A stretch of DNA of 64,000 nt from Escherichia phage vB_EcoM_KWBSE43-6. The notes beneath the pieces are model-generated. The model was not told the DNA's origin. It made no database searches and saw only the letters and a list, made by a program, of their open reading frames with translations. The first letter of the stretch is position 1, and each line of letters begins with the position of its first letter. The stretch lies in sequence record NC_048186.1. One strand, given 5' to 3'. This document shows, piece after piece, positions 22,308 to 58,843 of this stretch. A program made the translations under genes and the position numbers.

Positions 22308-22381
22308 TGGAAGGAGCACCAGGATTCGAACCTGAGATCATGGGATCAAAGCCCATTGCCTTACCGCTTGGCTATGCTCCT
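22308..22381 (-). tRNA. tRNA-Gln (anticodon UUG), CCA encoded
   Basis: Manual cloverleaf: acceptor AGGAGCA/TGCTCCT, D-loop GCCAAGCGGTAAGGC, anticodon loop CUUUGAU, T-loop TTCGAAT. Confidence 0.8.
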
Positions 22382-22541
22382 AAAATTGGGAGAGGTACGC
22401 CAGAGTCGAACTGGAAACAGTATTTGACTGGATTATTTGCATTTAGGCCAGTCATCCCCTGTCTTTTGATCTCCACCCCATCTGCGGCCTGGTGCCGGAT
22501 GCACCCAACATTCAGGTTGCGGGAGAACATACCCCTTAATT

Positions 22542-22625
22542 TGGTGAGGGAGGATGGATTCGAACCACCGAAGCCGAAACACCTGATTTACAGTCAGGCC
22601 CATTTGACCACTCTGGTACTCCCCC
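22542..22625 (-). tRNA. tRNA-Tyr (anticodon GUA), long variable arm, CCA encoded
   Basis: Manual fold: anticodon arm CCTGA-CUGUAAA-TCAGG, long variable arm, T-loop TTCGAAT. Confidence 0.75.
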
Positions 22626-23043
22626 GAATTTGGACGGGCTTCTCACCCGATTGTGCATTTGATCTGCCGTAGCCCAACTCCCCGCGTCGTAACGCCGATT
22701 GGTTAACTGGCACCAGTGCCTTCTGGTGTGATCCCTTGGAACTTTACAGGCTTCGCGCCAAACCATTTCTGGTAGTTGGGGCATCGTTTCCGATGTAGGG
22801 TTCCCCCATTTTAACACAGCTGGCTGCAACGCTTACTGTGTTTGTATCAGAGTGTCCGGTGTAGCATTCCGTGAGGTGCGCACTACTGTAGCCTCTACAC
22901 TCTGAATTTGTATGAAGTGGGAATCACTCTCCTGGGTGTCTGTATCCTGCGGCCTTACATTGGCAGCTATCGCGCGATTCGCACTTCCGAAGGCGCTTTG
23001 AGACACTCCACTTCAATTTGATGATGCCACACCACGTCTGGTT

Positions 23044-23114
23044 TGTTGAATCCAGGATTCGAACCTGGGATACCTGCCTTACAGGCGAGTCGCTTTGCCT
23101 CAGCGTTATTCAAC
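23044..23114 (-). tRNA. tRNA, identity uncertain (anticodon loop CUGUAAG, possibly GUA; one mismatch in anticodon stem)
   Basis: Acceptor GTTGAAT/ATTCAAC, T-arm CCAGG-TTCGAAT-CCTGG; anticodon stem imperfect, could be a pseudo-tRNA. Confidence 0.5.
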
Positions 23115-23239
23115 TGGCACCAATTTGGTGGGCGTTACTTTCGTCGGTTTCAGATTCCGTTCGGCTATTGGACGTTGTTCCAAAGAACTTGTCGGTCGCG
23201 TACTTCGTGCTTACTCGCTTTCGTTTCACACCCATTGTC

Positions 23240-23315
23240 TGGCGATGGTGGCAGGACTTGAACCTGCGACATATGGATTAACAGTCCACCGTTCTACCGA
23301 CTGAACTACACCATC
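23240..23315 (-). tRNA. tRNA-Asn (anticodon GUU), CCA encoded
   Basis: Acceptor GATGGTG/CACCATC, D-arm GTTCAGTCGGTAGAAC, anticodon loop CUGUUAA, T-loop TTCAAGT. Confidence 0.8.
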
Positions 23316-23322
23316 ATCAATT

Positions 23323-23409
23323 TGGCGGAAAGTCTGAGATTCGAACTCAGGGGGCATTACACCCGACGATTTTCAAGACCGTTGCCTTAAACCGCTCGGC
23401 CAACTTTCC
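23323..23409 (-). tRNA. tRNA-Ser (anticodon UGA), long variable arm, CCA encoded
   Basis: Acceptor GGAAAGT/ACTTTCC, D-loop GCCGAGCGGTTTAAGGC, anticodon loop CUUGAAA, variable arm CGGGTGTAATGCCCC. Confidence 0.8.
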
Positions 23410-23415
23410 TTTGTA

Positions 23416-23501
23416 TGGTGGAAGATACAGGATTCGAACCTGTGCAACCTTTCGGTTGTACACCTTAGCAGGGTGCTGCAATACCGCTCTGCCAATCTTC
23501 C
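23416..23501 (-). tRNA. tRNA-Ser (anticodon GCU), long variable arm, CCA encoded
   Basis: Acceptor GGAAGAT/ATCTTCC, anticodon loop CUGCUAA, long variable arm, T-loop TTCGAAT. Confidence 0.75.
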
Positions 23502-23692
23502 TATTTATTCGCTTCTATGGCTCGAAGTTGCTTCTCAGCGTCTTCTTTGGATTCATGTGTTCCCAAAACCTTTGTTTTGGTATGGTCCAACACAACCCAA
23601 TGATCACCACGCTTTTCAACAAACTCAACAATTTCTTTGTTGTCAGTCGCAAGACCATCCCATTCAGTTAAGAACTCACCGAACGTTTTCAT
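23501..23692 (-). CDS. small hypothetical protein embedded in tRNA cluster
   Basis: ORF track 23501..23719 (non-ATG start); likely start MMKTFGEF at 23692; protein-like composition. Confidence 0.5.
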   Translation of the reverse strand: MKTFGEFLTEWDGLATDNKEIVEFVEKRGDHWVVLDHTKTKVLGTHESKEDAEKQLRAIEANK

Positions 23693-23919
23693 CATACTCA
23701 CCAATCGTTTATTGAACAACTGGTTTATTTAGGTGCTCCCGAGGCGGTATTTTAATCCCGCGATCCCATCTCGCCTGCCGTAGACCAGAGCTTGTTGGCA
23801 GTCCAACAAATTTGGCGGGGTCTGAGGATTTTCACCTCACCTGCTGGATTGGCCTCCAGCCGTTCTCTCTGGGGACTCGCCGTCCGGACAGCTATCCCTT
23901 AAACTATCGCCCCTTAATA

Positions 23920-23995
23920 TGGTGATCCTGATTGGTTTTGAACCAATGACCAATCGATTATGAGTCGACTGCTCTAACCACTGAGCTACAGGACC
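23920..23995 (-). tRNA. tRNA-Met/Ile-type (anticodon CAU), CCA encoded
   Basis: Acceptor GGTCCTG/CAGGATC, D-arm GCTCAGTGGTTAGAGC, anticodon loop CUCAUAA, T-loop TTCAAAA. Confidence 0.75.
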
Positions 23996-31468: not shown

Positions 31469-31509
31469 ACTAAATACCCCTAGACGATTACATGTGCTAG
31501 GGGTATTTT
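31469..31509 (+). promoter_or_regulatory. CTAAATA motif embedded in a 12-bp leader hairpin immediately upstream of tailspike start
   Basis: aaatacccctag...ctaggggtattt stem ending 4 nt before ATG 31513; no SD between hairpin and ATG. Confidence 0.4.
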
Positions 31510-51174: not shown

Positions 51175-51861
51175 ATGTCTAATATGTCGGAACGTTTGTT
51201 ACAGACCTTAGATGCTGTCTCAGCACGAGATGAGGTTGCTCAAGATGCGATGAAGAAAACCGCATTGAAGCCCGGTGTTGATTATGATGAAGAAACGGGG
51301 GAGTGGTTAGGTGATCCCCCGGAAGGGTATCAAGGATTCGAGATGCCACCATCATTGTCTGAAGTCGCATCAAAAGAATCAAAAGTTCCTGAATACGAGG
51401 ACACTGACGCCACGACTGACTACAAACGTATTCGTGACACCACATATGCTATGCAAGAAGCCACGATGTTCATGATGGGCAAGGCCGCTGAACTCGCCGC
51501 TTCTACAGAGGCTCCTCGTGCATTCAGCGTCTTCCGCGAGCTGGGTGAACTCATGCGTGGTCTCAATAAAGACTTGATGGAAAACCAGAAAACCATCAAG
51601 GATGTTACTCGCGACAAAGAACCGCCGGGACAGACCACCGTTGAGGTTTCTGAAGATGAAAATGGAACGACTACAGTCAAAGTCGGTAAGACTGCTCGTT
51701 CGTCCAGAGATCTTCTCCAGATGATTGAGAAAGTTCGACGTGATGCCGAAGCCAATCGAAATTCTCGCGTCAACCCCGATGAAGAAGTAATTGACGTCGC
51801 GGAAGAACCAAAACAGGAAGATAAGTCAGAGGGCGAGGACAATGGCGTATCCGAAGCGTGA
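51175..51861 (+). CDS. terminase small subunit (T4 gp16-like by position)
   Basis: ORF track start 51169 is a TTG codon; ATG at 51175 with GAGGA SD; acidic C-terminus; immediately upstream of and overlapping the large terminase. Confidence 0.55.
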   Translation: MSNMSERLLQTLDAVSARDEVAQDAMKKTALKPGVDYDEETGEWLGDPPEGYQGFEMPPSLSEVASKESKVPEYEDTDATTDYKRIRDTTYAMQEATMFMMGKAAELAASTEAPRAFSVFRELGELMRGLNKDLMENQKTIKDVTRDKEPPGQTTVEVSEDENGTTTVKVGKTARSSRDLLQMIEKVRRDAEANRNSRVNPDEEVIDVAEEPKQEDKSEGEDNGVSEA

Positions 51862-54052
51862 AGTCGAATATGCCCCGGTCAAGACGGGGTTTAAAATTGA
51901 AGACGTCAAATTGCGTATGGACCAAACGTTCATGCGCAAGCCGACTGTGCGTGCTCCTCGTGTTGAATTAGTCCTTACTGATGAGCAAGAAGATGAATAT
52001 GTCAAGTGTGCCATGGACGCACACTATTTCGCTGCGAACTATTACAAGATCACCACTATCGACCACGGCTTCATCTTGTTCGATATGCATGATTATCAGA
52101 AGCAATTGTTCCATGATTTCCAGGATCATCGATTCAATGCTGTCGTACAGGCTCGTCAGTCTGGTAAATGTGTTCGGGGCGACTCTGAAGTTTATGTTTA
52201 CGATACTCTCAGCCAGGAAGAGTTCTCTATCACCATAGAGGAGCTTCACAGCCGCTTCGAGGACGTTAACCATGCAGAGCCGTTGAATACCATTGGCAAA
52301 CACAATAAGTTCGTAGATAGCCGCTTCGGCAAACGATACTTTGTGAAGTCTGATAGTGGTTGGGTTCCTGTAATAGCAGCACACAAGACAAAAGAATATG
52401 CAGAATATGTGGTAAAAACTGAAAGTGGTCGGACGATTCATGTCGCGGACGAACATCTATTCTTTAATGAATATAATAGTGAGGTTTTCGCCAAAGATCT
52501 GGAAGCCGGGGATGCCATCATGACGCAAGATGGCCTTGAATGTATTTCTGAAATTTGGGAAACCGGCGAATCTCACCACATGTTTGACCTCCAGGTGAAA
52601 TCATCTGAGCAGCGTTATTACACCAATGGGTTCCTGAGCCATAATACGACAGTGGTGGCGGCATTTCTCCTCTGGTACGCGATGTTCAACTCTGACAAAG
52701 AGATCGCGGTTCTTGCGAACAAAGAGAAACAGGCTATTGAAATCCTGGATCGTATTCGTAAAGCATATCAGGACATGCCATTCTTCGTCCAGCAAGGTTG
52801 TGAGAAATTTGGTTCAACCCTGATTGAATTCGAGAACGGTTCGAAGATCTTTGCATACGCGACTTCCTCGGACTCCATCCGTGGTCGTTCTGTATCTCTC
52901 CTGTATGTGGACGAAGTCGCATTCATCGAAAACGACTTTGAATTCTGGGAATCAACTTTCCCGGCGATCGCCCAGGCAGAGACTTCGAAGTGTATCCTCA
53001 CCAGTACACCAAAAGGTCAGCGCGGGCTGTTTTACGACATCGTCACGAAGGCGAACCCAGAACATCCTCAATACAACGACTTCAATCTTACGGAAGTTCC
53101 TTGGTACAGGGTTCCGGCGTACACCAAAGACCCGAATTGGGAATCCAAACAACGTGCCAAACTTGGCGACGCTCGTTTCGATCAGGAATTCGGTATCAAG
53201 TTCCGTGGTTCTGTCGGTTCATTAATACCGTCGAAATGTCTGGACAAGATGACATCCAAGTTGTATCAGGAGCCGAATGAGTTCACCAAAATCTACAAAC
53301 CCTTTGACAAAACCAGAACATATTTTGGTATTGCGGATACAGGCAAAGGGGTTGAGGGGGACTACTCTGTGCTGACCATATTGGACATCACGGAATATCC
53401 TCATACGATTGCAGCCAAATACCGGAACAACACGATACCGCCGATGATGTATGCATACACGATTGCCGATATGTGTACTCAATACGGTGAATGCCCTGTG
53501 CTTGTAGAGACCAACAATGATGTTGGTGGCCAGGTGATCACAATCCTGTATCAAGAAATTGAATATCCGGAAATCGTGTTTACATCAACGGACAATAAGG
53601 GTACTGGTAAGAAGATCGGCGGTCGTCGTCCTGAACCAGGGATCAACACCAACAAGAAAGTTCGCTCTATCGGTTGTGCTAACCTGAAAGCACTTATCGA
53701 AAGAGAGATGTTGGTAATCGAAGACCAGGATACGATTGATGAACTGAGTACGTTCGTGTTTACTGGGACCCGCTATGAGGCCGATCAGGGTTGTCATGAC
53801 GACTGCGTTATGCCACTTGTTTTATATTCATGGGCTGTAAAACAGGAATGGTTCAGTGATTTAACTGATACCAGCATTTCTCGAGATATGCGCGGTCGTA
53901 TGAATGCGATGGAGCAACACCAAGTCCTCCCGTTTGGGGGCAAATTTACTGGTGATACCCCTCATGAAGTACAGCATATGCCGGGCTTTGGGGGTGTGAA
54001 TGTATTTGATGAACGTTCTGGGATGTCAATGGAAGAGTGGTTCAAGAACTGA
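51842..54052 (+). CDS. terminase large subunit (T4 gp17-like) interrupted by a mini-intein
   Basis: Start MAYPKREVEY; Walker A reads RQSGK|C...HN|TTVVAAF, rejoining to RQSGKTTVVA like T4 QLGKTTVVA as recalled; downstream LLYVDEVAFI resembles T4 MIYIEDCAFI. Confidence 0.9.
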   Translation: MAYPKREVEYAPVKTGFKIEDVKLRMDQTFMRKPTVRAPRVELVLTDEQEDEYVKCAMDAHYFAANYYKITTIDHGFILFDMHDYQKQLFHDFQDHRFNAVVQARQSGKCVRGDSEVYVYDTLSQEEFSITIEELHSRFEDVNHAEPLNTIGKHNKFVDSRFGKRYFVKSDSGWVPVIAAHKTKEYAEYVVKTESGRTIHVADEHLFFNEYNSEVFAKDLEAGDAIMTQDGLECISEIWETGESHHMFDLQVKSSEQRYYTNGFLSHNTTVVAAFLLWYAMFNSDKEIAVLANKEKQAIEILDRIRKAYQDMPFFVQQGCEKFGSTLIEFENGSKIFAYATSSDSIRGRSVSLLYVDEVAFIENDFEFWESTFPAIAQAETSKCILTSTPKGQRGLFYDIVTKANPEHPQYNDFNLTEVPWYRVPAYTKDPNWESKQRAKLGDARFDQEFGIKFRGSVGSLIPSKCLDKMTSKLYQEPNEFTKIYKPFDKTRTYFGIADTGKGVEGDYSVLTILDITEYPHTIAAKYRNNTIPPMMYAYTIADMCTQYGECPVLVETNNDVGGQVITILYQEIEYPEIVFTSTDNKGTGKKIGGRRPEPGINTNKKVRSIGCANLKALIEREMLVIEDQDTIDELSTFVFTGTRYEADQGCHDDCVMPLVLYSWAVKQEWFSDLTDTSISRDMRGRMNAMEQHQVLPFGGKFTGDTPHEVQHMPGFGGVNVFDERSGMSMEEWFKN
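52169..52645 (+). mobile_element. mini-intein (159 aa, Hint domain, no endonuclease domain evident) in terminase P-loop
   Basis: Begins with Cys (CVRGDSEV), ends with HN followed by Thr +1 residue; block F-like MFDLQV...YYTNGFLSHN; removal restores the Walker A motif. Confidence 0.8.
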
Positions 54053-54055
54053 TCA

Positions 54056-54062
54056 CTAAATA
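54056..54062 (+). promoter_or_regulatory. late-promoter-like motif CTAAATA
   Basis: Located 43 nt upstream of sheath ATG 54105. Confidence 0.35.
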
Positions 54063-54104
54063 TCTTTCAAATTGAGCGAAACTCTACCGAGAAGGAATAA
54101 TATT

Positions 54105-56000
54105 ATGGCAACTACAAGCTTCAGCGTTGCGCCGTCTGTACAGTGGACCGAGCGCGATGCCACGCTTCAGACATCTCCGTCCGTTGTTGTTCAGGGCGCG
54201 TCTGCTGGTAAATTCCAATGGGGTGAAGTAGAATTGCCCGTGTTGGTTACTAGCGGTGAGACTGGTCTGGTGAAGAAATTCTTCAAACCGAATGATGATA
54301 CTGCAATCGACTTTCTGGTCATCGCTGACTTTTTGTCGTACAGTTCTGCTGCATGGGTGACCCGTATCGTCGGCCCTACTGCCAAGAACGCCGTGACTAA
54401 AGGTCAGAGCGCTATCCTCATCAAAAACAAACTGGACTTTGAGACCGCAAGTCCTTCGGCTTCTATCACGTGGACTGGTCGTTATCCCGGTTCCCTGGGC
54501 AACGATATTGCCGTTAACATCTGTGATGCAGCGTCATTCCCAACCTGGGAATTCCGTAACAACTTCGCCTATGCTCCTCAGGCTGGTGAATTCCACGTTG
54601 TTGTTGTGGATAAAGTTGGCCGTATCACCGATTCTTCCGGCGCTGTCGGTCAGGTTGATCGTATTTCTATTTCTGGTACTGCTACCGCCGCTGGCGCCAT
54701 CACAGTAGCAGGTGAATCTGTTGCGTACCTGCAGACGGATACCCCAGCAACTCTGGCGGCTAAAATCGGCCTGGAGATGGAAGCACTGACTGATGTTTAT
54801 TCGAGCGTTGTTGTGAAATCGAATACCGTCATTCTGACCCACAAAGCTATCGGCCCGCAGCCTGTTACCACCGTGGTTCCTGATGCCAATGGTCTGACTG
54901 GGACTGCGATCATCACCACTGTTGGCGCATCCGGTACGATCATTGAGAAATATGAACTGATGCAGAATACCCAGGGTTCTAAAAAATCCGACGGCGCGAA
55001 CGCATATTTCAAAGATGTTATCAACAATACTTCGAATTGGGTTTACACCTTCACTAATGCCCTGGCGGCAGGTGTAGTTGAACTCGAAGGTGGTGTTGAT
55101 GATTACGACGTCAACCGTGTCGCTGCTATCGAAGCCCTGAACAACGCCGAAGCATACGATGCCAAACCTGTGTTTGCATACTGCGAAGAGCTGATTGAAC
55201 AGCAGGCGATCATCGATCTGTCGACTAACCGTAAAGACACAGTGTCCTTCGTGTCGCCGCTGCGTGATGTTGTAGTCGGCAACCGTGGTCGTGAAATGGA
55301 TGATGTTGTGGCTTGGCGTGAAAGCCTGGTGCGCGATTCTTCCTATTTCTTTATGGATGACAACTGGGCATACGTTTACGACAAGTACAACGACAAAATG
55401 CGCTGGATCCCGGCGTGTGGTGGTACTGCAGGTCTGTGGGCGCGTACTATTGAGATTGCTGGTATCTATAAGTCCCCGGCGTTCCATAACCGTGGCAAAT
55501 ACAACAACTACAATCGTATGGCATGGTCCGCGTCTTCTGATGAACGTGCTGTGCTGTATCGCAACCAGATCAACAGCATCGTCACCTTCTCCACAGAAGG
55601 CATCGTGCTGTACGGTGATAAGACTGGCCTGACCCGCCCGTCAGCGTTCGATCGCATTAACGTGCGCGGCCTGTTCATCATGGCTGAACAAAACATCGCT
55701 GCCATCGCCAAATACTATCTTGGTGAAAACAACGATGCGTTCACTCGCAGCCTGTTTAGCAACGCCGTTCGTCCTTATATTCGCCAGCTGGCCAACATGG
55801 GCGCGATTTATGACGGTAAAGTGAAGTGCGACGAAGACAATAACCCGGCTGAAGTTATTGCTGCCAACCAGATGGTTGCTGGTATCTGGCTGAAACCAGA
55901 ATACAGCATTAACTGGATTTATTTGGATTTTGCTGCCGTTCGTCCGGACATGGAATTCTCGGAAATCGAATCCGGCGGCGGTATTGTCGCAGCGTCATAA
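54105..56000 (+). CDS. tail sheath protein (T4 gp18-like)
   Basis: Start MATTSFSVAP with GAAGGAA SD; about 631 aa; conserved position upstream of tail tube. Confidence 0.8.
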   Translation: MATTSFSVAPSVQWTERDATLQTSPSVVVQGASAGKFQWGEVELPVLVTSGETGLVKKFFKPNDDTAIDFLVIADFLSYSSAAWVTRIVGPTAKNAVTKGQSAILIKNKLDFETASPSASITWTGRYPGSLGNDIAVNICDAASFPTWEFRNNFAYAPQAGEFHVVVVDKVGRITDSSGAVGQVDRISISGTATAAGAITVAGESVAYLQTDTPATLAAKIGLEMEALTDVYSSVVVKSNTVILTHKAIGPQPVTTVVPDANGLTGTAIITTVGASGTIIEKYELMQNTQGSKKSDGANAYFKDVINNTSNWVYTFTNALAAGVVELEGGVDDYDVNRVAAIEALNNAEAYDAKPVFAYCEELIEQQAIIDLSTNRKDTVSFVSPLRDVVVGNRGREMDDVVAWRESLVRDSSYFFMDDNWAYVYDKYNDKMRWIPACGGTAGLWARTIEIAGIYKSPAFHNRGKYNNYNRMAWSASSDERAVLYRNQINSIVTFSTEGIVLYGDKTGLTRPSAFDRINVRGLFIMAEQNIAAIAKYYLGENNDAFTRSLFSNAVRPYIRQLANMGAIYDGKVKCDEDNNPAEVIAANQMVAGIWLKPEYSINWIYLDFAAVRPDMEFSEIESGGGIVAAS

Positions 56001-56005
56001 GACAC

Positions 56006-56033
56006 CAAACCCCGCTTCGGCGGGGTTTTACTT
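56006..56033 (+). terminator. rho-independent terminator
   Basis: aaaccccgcttcggcggggttt followed by tacttcgg. Confidence 0.55.
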
Positions 56034-56068
56034 CGGGGTAAATAATATCGGCAACCCGGAGATTTGAA

Positions 56069-56524
56069 ATGATATTTGCATACAAAATTGAAATGATATC
56101 TAACAACAAGGTCTACATCGGTGTGACCAATGATCCGCAAAGGCGATATGAGCAACATTTGGCCAATGCATTTCAATATAATGTTGAAAGTGAATTGTAT
56201 GATGCCATGCGCAAATATGGGGCTTCCGCTTTTACTTTCGTGATTATTGCTCAAACCGATGAAGTCCACAAATGGGAATTGGAAAAGCAATTAATTGCTC
56301 AATACGATTCTTATGAATTGGGCTACAACATGAATAAAGGCGGTAACGATGGAAGTCATCTGGTTGGTAAAGCTGCTGCTAAATTGACCTCCACTGGAGA
56401 ACATATTGGTATGGTCTCATTAATTGATCCACGTTGGGATCTCTGTGAGATTGAACCAGTACGGAACAATGTTGATCATGGCTTTGATCTCAGTAAATTG
56501 ACGATCAAAAGATTAACAGACTAA
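56069..56524 (+). CDS. GIY-YIG family endonuclease (Seg-like free-standing homing endonuclease candidate)
   Basis: N-terminal YKIEMISNNKVYIGVTNDPQRRYEQH and downstream YNMNKGG match GIY-YIG motifs; inserted between sheath and tube genes. Confidence 0.7.
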   Translation: MIFAYKIEMISNNKVYIGVTNDPQRRYEQHLANAFQYNVESELYDAMRKYGASAFTFVIIAQTDEVHKWELEKQLIAQYDSYELGYNMNKGGNDGSHLVGKAAAKLTSTGEHIGMVSLIDPRWDLCEIEPVRNNVDHGFDLSKLTIKRLTD

Positions 56525-56558
56525 TTAGAATTGTGTAACTCTTTTTGGAGAATGTATA

Positions 56559-57092
56559 ATGGCTACAGTAAATGAATTTCGCGCGGCCATGTCACGTGGG
56601 GGCGGCGTTCAACGTCAGCACCGCTGGCGTGTGACTGTAAACTTCCCGGCATTCGTAGCGGGTTCTGACACCATTCGTGACGTATCTCTGTTGGCTGTAA
56701 CAACCAACACCCCGACAGGCCAGCTGGGTGAGATTCTCGTTCCGTGGGGTGGCCGTGAACTGCCGTTCCCTGGCGACCGTCGTTTTGAGGCTCTGCCTGT
56801 AACGTTTATCAACGTTGTGGACAACGCCCCGTACAACGCATTTGAAATCTGGCAGCAGTATATCAACGGCAGCAACAACAACCGTGCGTCTGCTAACGCA
56901 GATGATTATTTCCGTGACATCATCATGGAACTGCTGGATGCTAACGACAACGTCACCAAGACCTGGACGCTGCAGGGCGGCTGGCCTCAGAACCTCGGTC
57001 AGCTGGAACTGGATATGTCTGCTATGGACTCCTATACTCAGTTCACTGTTGACCTGCGTTACTTCCAGGCCATTTCGGACAAGTCTCTCTAA
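56559..57092 (+). CDS. tail tube protein (T4 gp19-like)
   Basis: 177 aa; C-terminal GWPQNLGQLELD resembles T4 gp19 LWPTNVGELQLD as recalled. Confidence 0.8.
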   Translation: MATVNEFRAAMSRGGGVQRQHRWRVTVNFPAFVAGSDTIRDVSLLAVTTNTPTGQLGEILVPWGGRELPFPGDRRFEALPVTFINVVDNAPYNAFEIWQQYINGSNNNRASANADDYFRDIIMELLDANDNVTKTWTLQGGWPQNLGQLELDMSAMDSYTQFTVDLRYFQAISDKSL

Positions 57093-57160: not shown

Positions 57161-58843
57161 ATGGCATACGGCAAAGGTTTCTTTGGTCTGTTCAGCGGCG
57201 GCGGTTTAGTTGACGCCAAAGTTGACACGGACAAATATGTCCAGAGTCAAGAAGAGAAGCTGCTTTCAAAAGCGACTGTTGTAGCTCTGGACGACGCTCA
57301 GGATGGTTCAGTCATCCTCCAGGGCGGGGCCAACACTTACAATTATGTTGGTGTTGAGAGCGAGCTGCTTAATGTCAAACAGCTTGTTGAAGAATATCAG
57401 TCCATGGCTCAGCAGCCTGAAATCCGCAAAGCGGTGGACATCATTATTAACGACGTTGTCACCTGCGAAGAAGATGAAACGCCGGTTACTATCAATCTCG
57501 ATAAAGTTGAAGGCATCAGTGAAGATTTGAAAGAACAAATCACAGAATGCTTCAAAGAGATTATGAATTTGCTGGACTTTGACGACACTGCGTATCAGAA
57601 GATGCGTAAATGGTATGTTGAAGGCCGTCAGGCATATCATGTTGTAACTGACCCGACCAAGCCAGGTAACGGCATTCAGAAGCTGGTCATGCTTGATTCT
57701 CGTTGCATCCGTCCAGTATACGTCGTTGAGAAAACGATGCGAGAAGGCGGCATCGAGGCAATCGAAAAGGTCACTCTCAAGTATTACTACAATCCGAACT
57801 ACAACCGCAACCAATTCACTGGTCAATCTGGGACATCTCAGAACTTCCAGCCGTCTCAACAGGAACTGGTATTTGACGAAGAAAGTATCGTCTATGTTGA
57901 TAGCGGTGAAGATCCTTTGGCAAATGGTGTTGTTCCCGGTCTGCTGAACCCTGCTATCCGCCCGCTCAACAACCTGGTTACGGTTGAGGATGCGACGGTA
58001 ATTTACGCCATCACCCGTGCTCCAGAAAAACGTGCATTCTATCTGGACGTCGGTACTCTCGGTAAGAAATCTGCCGAAGAATACATGACTATGATGATGG
58101 GTAAATTCAAAAACCGTCTGGCGTTTGACCGCAGTACTGGTAAGATTACGGGCAACAGCCATCTGATGGGGATAGCTGAGGACTATTGGTTGCCTCGTCG
58201 TGAAGGTCAGAACGCCACTGAGATTTCAACAGTCGGTGGTGGCGACCAATTAGGACAGATGGACCACGTCAATTACTTCCTTGAAAAACTGTATAGCTCT
58301 CTGTTTATTCCAAAGAGTCGTATCCAGGAAGAAGGGAGCATCAATATTGGCGGTTCTAATTTGGCTGAGATCACCCAGGAAGAACTGCGGTTCAACAAAT
58401 TCTGCGCAGGTTTGCGCCGTCGTTATTCTAAATTCTTCTCTGAATTTTTACGTCGTCAGTTAATTTTGAAAAAGATTACTGACGAACAAGATTGGGTTGA
58501 AAAAATTCAACCGTTCGTTACGTTTGAATTCACCTCAGACAGTTTTATCCGTGAACAGCAAGAAAATGAAATGCTTGCTGGTCGTCTGAGCGCCCTGACC
58601 GGGATTGAGCCTTATATCGGAACATTCTTCTCAATTGATTACGCGATGCGGAACATTATGCGTATGTCTGATGAAGAAATTAAGGCCCAGCAAGAGAAGA
58701 TCAAAGAAGAAAAAGATAAAGGAATGTATCCGAAGGTTCAGGCTGATGAGAGTGGTGGATTTAGTGGACAAGATGTTAGCCCGCTGAAATGGCGACCTGA
58801 AGTTATCCCTTTCCAGGGTACACCCGGCGGAGTAGAAGAGTAA
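57161..58843 (+). CDS. portal vertex protein (T4 gp20-like)
   Basis: 560 aa; segments RKWYVEGRQAYHVV and AITRAPEKRAFYLDVGTL...EDYWLPRREGQ resemble T4 gp20 as recalled. Confidence 0.85.
   Translation: MAYGKGFFGLFSGGGLVDAKVDTDKYVQSQEEKLLSKATVVALDDAQDGSVILQGGANTYNYVGVESELLNVKQLVEEYQSMAQQPEIRKAVDIIINDVVTCEEDETPVTINLDKVEGISEDLKEQITECFKEIMNLLDFDDTAYQKMRKWYVEGRQAYHVVTDPTKPGNGIQKLVMLDSRCIRPVYVVEKTMREGGIEAIEKVTLKYYYNPNYNRNQFTGQSGTSQNFQPSQQELVFDEESIVYVDSGEDPLANGVVPGLLNPAIRPLNNLVTVEDATVIYAITRAPEKRAFYLDVGTLGKKSAEEYMTMMMGKFKNRLAFDRSTGKITGNSHLMGIAEDYWLPRREGQNATEISTVGGGDQLGQMDHVNYFLEKLYSSLFIPKSRIQEEGSINIGGSNLAEITQEELRFNKFCAGLRRRYSKFFSEFLRRQLILKKITDEQDWVEKIQPFVTFEFTSDSFIREQQENEMLAGRLSALTGIEPYIGTFFSIDYAMRNIMRMSDEEIKAQQEKIKEEKDKGMYPKVQADESGGFSGQDVSPLKWRPEVIPFQGTPGGVEE

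Follow-up and report, generated by a model that had tools for sequence, protein, structure and literature searches.

In Escherichia phage vB_EcoM_KWBSE43-6, a free-standing gene that encodes a GIY-YIG nuclease of the I-TevI/Seg type lies in the gap from the tail sheath gene to the tail tube gene. Comparison with related phages shows that this slot, bounded by the sheath terminator and the late promoter of the tube gene, is a hotspot for homing-endonuclease genes in the Ackermannviridae. By alignments, profiles and models, the 151-aa product is a truncated derivative of a Menlow-like endonuclease of about 230 aa that lost its C-terminal helix-turn-helix domain through an old deletion. This short form has been kept in the one slot across Kuttervirus, Taipeivirus and Miltonvirus under purifying selection, with its catalytic residues intact. 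We consider it moderately probable that the protein is still an active nuclease which biases sheath-tube inheritance in mixed infections.

The gene is an ATG-initiated ORF at 56069-56524 on the + strand of the window, by which we mean the whole 64,000-nt stretch of DNA that was analysed, and it was confirmed in the ORF listing of that window. Its translation contains the motifs AYKIE, KVYIGVT, RRYEQH and GYNMNKGG, and its G+C content is about 0.40 compared with about 0.50 in the sheath and tube genes on either side. The locus comprises the following features:

54072-56000, + strand: tail sheath gene (Pfam Phage_sheath_1C, PHROG 23), the upstream flank
about 56007-56032, + strand: intrinsic terminator hairpin of the sheath gene, AAACCCCGC-TTCG-GCGGGGTTT followed by TTTAC, the left edge of the slot
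56031-56061, + strand: possible second hairpin, CTTCGGG / CCCGGAG (56031-56037 paired with 56055-56061), from RNA folding
56058-56061, + strand: ribosome-binding site GGAG of the GIY-YIG gene
56069-56353, + strand: GIY-YIG catalytic domain, residues 1-95 (Pfam, I-TevI alignment, fold)
56354-56473, + strand: single 'DPRW' module, residues 96-135, GKAAAKLTSTGEHIGMVSLIDPRWDLCEIEPV (repeat matches, model)
56474-56524, + strand: C-terminal tail, residues 136-151 and stop codon (pLDDT 47-61, relaxed constraint)
56521-56527, + strand: late promoter CTAATTA of the tube gene, the right edge of the slot, conserved in empty sites
56547-56550, + strand: ribosome-binding site GGAG of the tube gene
56559-57092, + strand: tail tube gene (PHROG 45, E 4.9e-56), the downstream flank
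57161-58843: portal gene, 3' of the tail tube gene

Against Pfam Phage_T4_gp19 the tube gene scored 25.9 bits, which is under the cut-off of 28.2. In the ORF list the sheath gene begins at TTG 54072; judging by a late-promoter motif at 54056 and by the sequence MATTSF..., the true start is probably ATG 54105. Two further features of the window were recorded. Seven tRNA genes are clustered at 22311-23995 on the - strand (Rfam), and the large terminase ORF (51791-54052) holds a 159-aa mini-intein-like insert at 52169-52645 (Cys ... His-Asn | Thr). This insert splits an apparent ATPase Walker A loop (QARQSGK | C...SHN | TTVVAAF) and matches Pfam Intein_splicing at 27.9 bits, under the cut-off of 35.8; related terminases on contigs L013 and L014 give the same faint match.

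The phage itself is a Klebsiella member of the Ackermannviridae, genus Taipeivirus; the region is 98-99% identical to phages of this group such as phi1_146041, May and 0507-KN2-1. An earlier, sequence-only reading had seen in the locus a typical Seg-type location in a T4-like phage. The free-standing position between core structural genes stood up, whereas the assignment of the phage did not: it belongs to the Ackermannviridae (ViI-like), which carry T4-type morphogenesis genes, and strictly is not T4-like.

Profile, residue and fold evidence agree on the GIY-YIG catalytic motifs which that reading had picked out of the translation. Pfam GIY-YIG (PF01541) matched residues 3-81 above its cut-off (37.9 bits vs 22.6, E 2.2e-9), and PHROG 5123, 'homing endonuclease with GIY-YIG motif', aligned over the full length of the protein (residues 1-151 on profile positions 1-151 of 152, E 1.8e-88). 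Residues Y5, Y16, R26, H30, E72 and N87 align with Y6, Y17, R27, H31, E75 and N90 of I-TevI, and all six are invariant in a 50-sequence homologue alignment. The AlphaFold model has a mean pLDDT of 87, rising to >93 for residues 1-90, and Foldseek superimposed it on the I-TevI catalytic domain (PDB 1MK0, 1LN0) with a target-normalised TM of 0.83-0.86 and an rmsd of 1.6-1.9 A. Both the sequence and the fold searches of the PDB rank I-TevI first, followed by UvrC and Slx1. PADLOC returned generic homing-endonuclease models only; Pfam SegE_GIY-YIG did not match the 151-aa protein, and neither did any other Seg-specific model.

The same searches bear on the reading that the protein is a nuclease degrading host DNA in the manner of T4 endonuclease II (DenA), a small GIY-YIG enzyme without a separate binding domain. 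The similar size of 151 aa would suit such a role, and Ackermannviridae DNA carries modified thymidine, which could shield the phage genome. However, I-TevI is the best match in both sequence and fold, and endonuclease II is absent among the 50 Foldseek matches listed. Moreover, the gene lies in the late structural block behind a terminator, is missing from many relatives, and has as its sister group typical long homing endonucleases of the same slot. We therefore regard a DenA-like enzyme as very improbable.

As a gene call the ORF is already known and annotated, and its family has a PHROG of its own. Proteins that are 100% identical have been deposited for nine records, several of them Klebsiella phages, under the names 'GIY-YIG endonuclease' or 'homing endonuclease with GIY-YIG motif', and the CBA120 orthologue is annotated as 'putative homing endonuclease SegD'. 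The annotations of PWKp5, MDA2066 and XDRKpn-1 use 'putative intron endonuclease', and a partial match to TIGR01453, 'group I intron endonuclease', points in the same direction (49.2 bits over positions 3-93 of 215, below the cut-off of 56.05). However, no group I intron was found anywhere in the window at Rfam gathering scores, and the record label 'intron endonuclease' is therefore wrong. Sheath and tube are separate, complete genes and the ORF is flanked by a terminator and a promoter, so that an intron-encoded enzyme is refuted and has next to no probability left. Since the flanking ORFs are complete and terminator, promoter and ribosome-binding site are all in place, with no group I intron, the gene is free-standing. 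Our literature search found no paper on the sheath-tube endonuclease locus; its sole mention was in the endonuclease list of LIMEstone1 (PMC3296691).

The gene fills exactly the gap from the sheath terminator to the tube promoter. On the left, the stop codon of the sheath gene (55998-56000) is followed by the terminator hairpin. An 81-nt stretch containing this hairpin folds with -26.5 kcal/mol (z -3.1), the stem was also found by a consensus scan, and an equivalent hairpin is present in both empty and occupied relatives. On the right, the TAA stop of the GIY-YIG gene (56522-56524) falls within the promoter sequence CTAATTA. From its enrichment and position, CTAA[A/T]TA most likely represents the phage's late-promoter motif: CTAAATA occurs 16 times in the window where 6.2 occurrences are expected (2.6-fold; 0 of 100 shuffles reach 16), and of the 13 CTAA[AT]TA sites on the + strand, 9 precede the ATG of a long ORF by 29-49 nt, among them those of sheath (54056), tube (56521) and portal (57128). 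A scan of the region for sigma-70 promoters found none. Upstream of long structural-gene ORFs, + strand copies of the motif were recorded at 31470, 34782, 38050, 40382, 43287, 54056, 56521, 57128, 58856 and 60059.

The possible second hairpin lies directly in front of the gene. Its 3' arm spans the GGAG at 56058-56061 and its loop holds a late-promoter-like GTAAATA (56038-56044). The arms are identical in Serratia phage IME250, where the loop differs; the element is absent in Vi01, and covariation lends it no support. By analogy with T4, which restricts some genes to late translation in a similar manner, one might speculate that this hairpin may act as a late-only translation switch for the GIY-YIG gene.

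At least six states of the slot occur among relatives, which bears out the earlier suggestion of an insertion between sheath and tube genes. In this comparison, 366 phage records carry this tail tube protein, 261 match the sheath-to-portal region by DNA, and 194 hold a copy of the short gene that is at least 80% identical. The slot is empty, with a spacer of 10-78 nt, in Agtrevirus phages Ag3, Gloob, MK-13, P46FS4 and EspM4VN, in Erwinia phage phiEa2809 and in Vibrio phages VAP7 and K474, and universal presence of the gene at this sheath-tube (gp18-gp19) interval is refuted by these Agtrevirus, phiEa2809 and Vibrio sites. The short gene stands alone in most Taipeivirus and Kuttervirus records and in Miltonvirus 3M, the one Miltonvirus phage checked. 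Menlow carries a 230-aa relative in place of the short gene. A second GIY-YIG lineage of 231-235 aa occupies the slot alone in Limestonevirus XF4 and in Agtrevirus phages CECAV050 and ChubbyThor; the two halves of a probe for the Ag3 sheath-tube junction matched ChubbyThor, of the same genus, at 93.9%, separated there by about 735 bp of additional sequence. Members of this second lineage (228-240 aa) also lie directly upstream of the short gene in FKP14, ECML-4 and contigs L014 and L015, and where inspected the tandem genes overlap by ATGA. In Salmonella phage KE31 (Kuttervirus; L011 3633-5833) the short gene is absent and two unrelated genes take its place, namely a 120-aa ORF (PHROG 13016, unknown function) and a 603-aa endonuclease on the reverse strand (PHROG 3339). 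Finally, Klebsiella phage Magnus (L009 1543-1845) has an extra 100-aa ORF between the sheath terminator and the short gene, for which neither a PHROG match nor a known family was found.

An annotation of ECML-4 hints at a decayed copy of 106 aa; tblastn gave an intact 152-aa gene instead. In Vibrio phage VAP7 (L018 2751-4205), whose sheath-tube junction is empty, a reverse-strand homing-endonuclease gene lies between tail tube and portal; neighbouring junctions in the structural block therefore also host endonuclease genes.

In the empty Agtrevirus sites the final ~18 nt of the long-form ORFs are still present, and these sites could be taken for deletions. This interpretation was rejected: the distant, empty phiEa2809 shows the same layout of terminator, CTAAATAG promoter, ribosome-binding site and ATG. 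Because of this layout, the comparison suggests that an empty slot came first and that the promoter belongs to the resident sequence. The homing-endonuclease ORFs run into this promoter sequence and end there, and the long forms end in ...L(I/N)R(I/S)(V/I)*, read from CTAA(T/A)TAGA....

The sequence-only reading had noted that the protein is shorter than typical Seg proteins and that its DNA-binding domain may be reduced, and this proved correct. Along its entire length the 151-aa protein can be aligned with the long proteins of the slot, whose last ~75-80 residues it lacks; in relatives of 230-240 aa these residues include a modelled helix-turn-helix. Its identity is 57% to the Menlow protein, 44% to that of XF4 and 39% to the upstream gene of FKP14. 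A word-indexed protein search yielded 6 clusters only, too few for evolutionary conclusions, and an exhaustive representative search was used. In the neighbour-joining tree the short forms, represented by this window, Vi01, IME250, ECML-4 and contigs L013, L014 and L015, make up one clade that is sister to Menlow and P0008, and the second lineage stands apart. The short form of the Serratia phage 3M, examined afterwards, is 80% identical to that of L014 and 57% to the window protein.

In the model of the Menlow protein (pLDDT 91.6) the part missing from the short form comprises a beta-beta-helix-turn-helix at residues 163-196 and a small unit at the C-terminus. In the fold search only the long form matched I-HmuI, a homing endonuclease bound to DNA (probability 0.99), and of the two only the Menlow long form exceeds the TIGR01453 cut-off, scoring 65 bits across positions 5-203 of 215. 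The helix-turn-helix assignment is based on this model, the I-HmuI match and the TIGR01453 coverage. Searched on their own, the C-terminal ~75 residues of the long form gave nothing meaningful in a profile search of PDB sequences (best match nucleoside diphosphate kinase, E 0.09) and only sub-threshold hints of helix-turn-helix and NUMOD1 in Pfam (E 0.01-0.08). In the simplest history, a single internal deletion would have left the promoter-overlapping 3' end in place. The 3M protein ends in ...KRVSELNRIV*, in frame with the long-form end. The window gene is shifted in frame by one base relative to that end, and its stop therefore lies inside the promoter. From the alignment to the long forms, the tail of residues 136-151 is the remnant of the linker to the deleted domain.

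What the truncated protein retains besides its catalytic domain is one copy of a unit of about 35-40 aa with the consensus G-K-x-A-A-x4-T-G-E-x-L-G-x-V-x3-D-P-R-W-x-T-G-E-I, which we call DPRW and which no Pfam family covers. It models as a beta-hairpin followed by a short helix with a pLDDT of about 87. Three to six tandem copies are found in other phage nuclease-associated proteins (P0009, P0010, P0022, P0055, P0109 and P0125), some of the DPRW-repeat proteins faintly resembling SegE-type GIY-YIG or HNH domains. Because of these tandem copies, DPRW is probably a modular DNA-binding unit, and the repeat may represent a putative DNA-binding module that has so far escaped cataloguing.

Divergence was analysed by the Nei-Gojobori method. 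For the whole gene dN/dS is 0.072 against Vi01 and 0.12 against IME250, compared with 0.02-0.05 in the flanking genes. The dS against Vi01 is ~1.5 in the gene and 1.3-1.4 in the flanks; against IME250 the gene is lower, with 0.59 compared with 0.92-1.1. Broken down by part, the protein gave the following values:

residues 1-95, catalytic domain: dN/dS 0.07-0.14
residues 96-135, DPRW module: dN/dS 0.05-0.07, the most conserved part of the protein
residues 136-151, tail: pN/pS 0.26-1.3, relaxed

Short forms merely 57-73% identical to the window protein hold the same slot on metagenome contigs, and each of the 60 phage records listed covers 99-100% of the protein, with no frameshift seen. Given the dN/dS values, a dS near that of the flanks and the same slot at 57-73% identity, the short gene has diverged largely alongside its neighbours and is maintained by selection, rather than being a decaying remnant. 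It looks like an old, vertically inherited resident and not a recent insertion. The original observation was confirmed and its first interpretation supported, with corrections concerning the phage group and the age of the gene.

One alternative holds that the gene is a dead homing endonuclease which persists because its deletion would harm the adjacent promoter or gain nothing. The loss of the helix-turn-helix domain, the drifting tail and the ability of a second endonuclease to invade alongside are all in line with such an inactive remnant. However, the low dN/dS of catalytic domain and module at a dS of up to 1.5, the retention of all six catalytic residues, the full coverage without frameshifts in the records listed and an architecture kept down to 57% identity speak against it, and we give it little credence.

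Recombination has left traces next to the gene. Taipeivirus genomes are ~99% identical elsewhere, and their differences concentrate in the final ~90 nt of the sheath gene, where they track the slot content. Viewed base by base over the last 240 nt, the sheath variants of FKP14 equal those of L015, both of which carry the same 240-aa endonuclease, and a different pattern is common to Menlow and Magnus. Over the first 150 nt of the tube gene there is no change other than at codon 2 in Menlow. A sliding-window donor search with the sheath 3' tracts of FKP14 and Magnus found no closer match to Agtrevirus or Limestonevirus, and for the FKP14 tract no donor was shown beyond the similarity to L015. 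Such mosaic tracts would fit co-conversion beside an endonuclease cut site, but ordinary recombination could also yield them.

In the favoured explanation of a putatively active nuclease, the protein would be made late in infection and would still cut DNA, with weaker or relaxed target recognition. During mixed infection it would cleave the sheath-tube region of related phages that lack the gene, and repair from the carrier genome would spread the gene together with neighbouring markers, as in intronless homing or marker exclusion. Such spread would explain why selection keeps the gene. The following weighs against it: the helix-turn-helix domain that gives the relatives their site specificity is missing, the dS from Vi01 is close to that of the flanks and points to vertical descent instead of recent mobility, and a second lineage still inserts just upstream of the short gene (FKP14, ECML-4, L014, L015).

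A rival view holds that the gene is a domesticated former homing endonuclease, retained for another benefit to the phage after losing its specificity domain. It might serve as a general nuclease on competitor or host DNA that lacks the phage base modification, or it might bind DNA and exert control close to the tube late promoter. In agreement with this view, vertical descent has long preserved the gene in three or more genera, with strong purifying selection, the DPRW module is the most conserved part, and the ORF overlaps the tube promoter; furthermore, the cycle of invasion, decay and loss predicts that a fixed element decays, and decay is not seen. However, the gene is dispensable, being absent in Agtrevirus, Limestonevirus, phiEa2809 and KE31 and replaced by the long form in Menlow. 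All catalytic residues are kept, which argues against a nuclease-dead regulator, and the closest relatives are all homing-endonuclease families. On balance we think domestication unlikely. Put more specifically, the short gene might no longer be selfish and might encode a nuclease without helix-turn-helix, long kept by enterobacterial Ackermannviridae, that contacts its target via the single DPRW repeat; this proposal is tentative and, in our judgement, somewhat unlikely. If it held, the benefit could be, for example, the exclusion of co-infecting relatives or an action at the overlapped late promoter.

Returning to the favoured reading of a putatively active nuclease in a hotspot, the comparative details are tidy and unsurprising for phage homing endonucleases. 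The locus nevertheless offers a clean natural hotspot in which empty, short, long, tandem and replaced states are all observed, and it is suited to testing whether competition between phages sustains phage homing endonucleases. A truncated endonuclease that has escaped the expected decay, with purifying selection in at least three genera, adds to this interest, and endonuclease ORFs that end inside a resident late promoter are of modest comparative value. On the practical side, phages of this kind feature in phage therapy work on Klebsiella and Salmonella, and mixed infections could move the region between phages.

Among known systems, I-TevI of the T4 td intron shares with the window protein the catalytic fold, the Y, Y, R, H, E and N residues and a modular build in which an N-terminal nuclease is followed by a linker. 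I-TevI has a zinc finger and a minor-groove helix. Unlike I-TevI, the window gene does not lie in an intron, lacks a C-terminal helix-turn-helix and stays under the TIGR01453 cut-off; it carries the DPRW module, which no Pfam family covers. The T4 genes SegA-G resemble the window gene in being free-standing GIY-YIG genes between conserved genes, present or absent among relatives and with mosaic flanks. In contrast to the Seg type, the window protein has no helix-turn-helix/NUMOD C-terminal DNA-binding domain, is left with one DPRW module and matches no Seg-specific model.

Within the slot, the window protein with its 151 aa is shorter than the other GIY-YIG proteins of 228-240 aa. The 230-aa Menlow type (CPT_Menlow_063; P0008) represents the sister lineage, being 57-61% identical over residues 1-150, located in the same slot and encoded by an ORF that ends in the same promoter sequence; it differs in keeping the beta-beta-helix-turn-helix and, with it, the pass in TIGR01453 (65 bits) and the match to I-HmuI. 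The Limestonevirus endonuclease upstream of the tail tube ('F-LimII' in XF4) shares slot and superfamily with 39-44% identity, including the DPRW module. It differs as a separate lineage of 228-240 aa with a C-terminal domain, which is found on the upstream side wherever it occurs together with the short gene. For LIMEstone1, ORF145 F-LimVIII, described as Hef-like, is listed at this position (PMC3296691).

A naturally truncated homing endonuclease is also known from T4, namely I-TevIII (PMC1865063), which provides an earlier example of a phage endonuclease gene persisting as the shortened version of a full-length relative. I-TevIII belongs to another nuclease family and is intron-encoded, and its carrier, the T4 nrdB intron, is not mobile (PMC1865063). 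The window gene, in contrast to I-TevIII, is under strong purifying selection.
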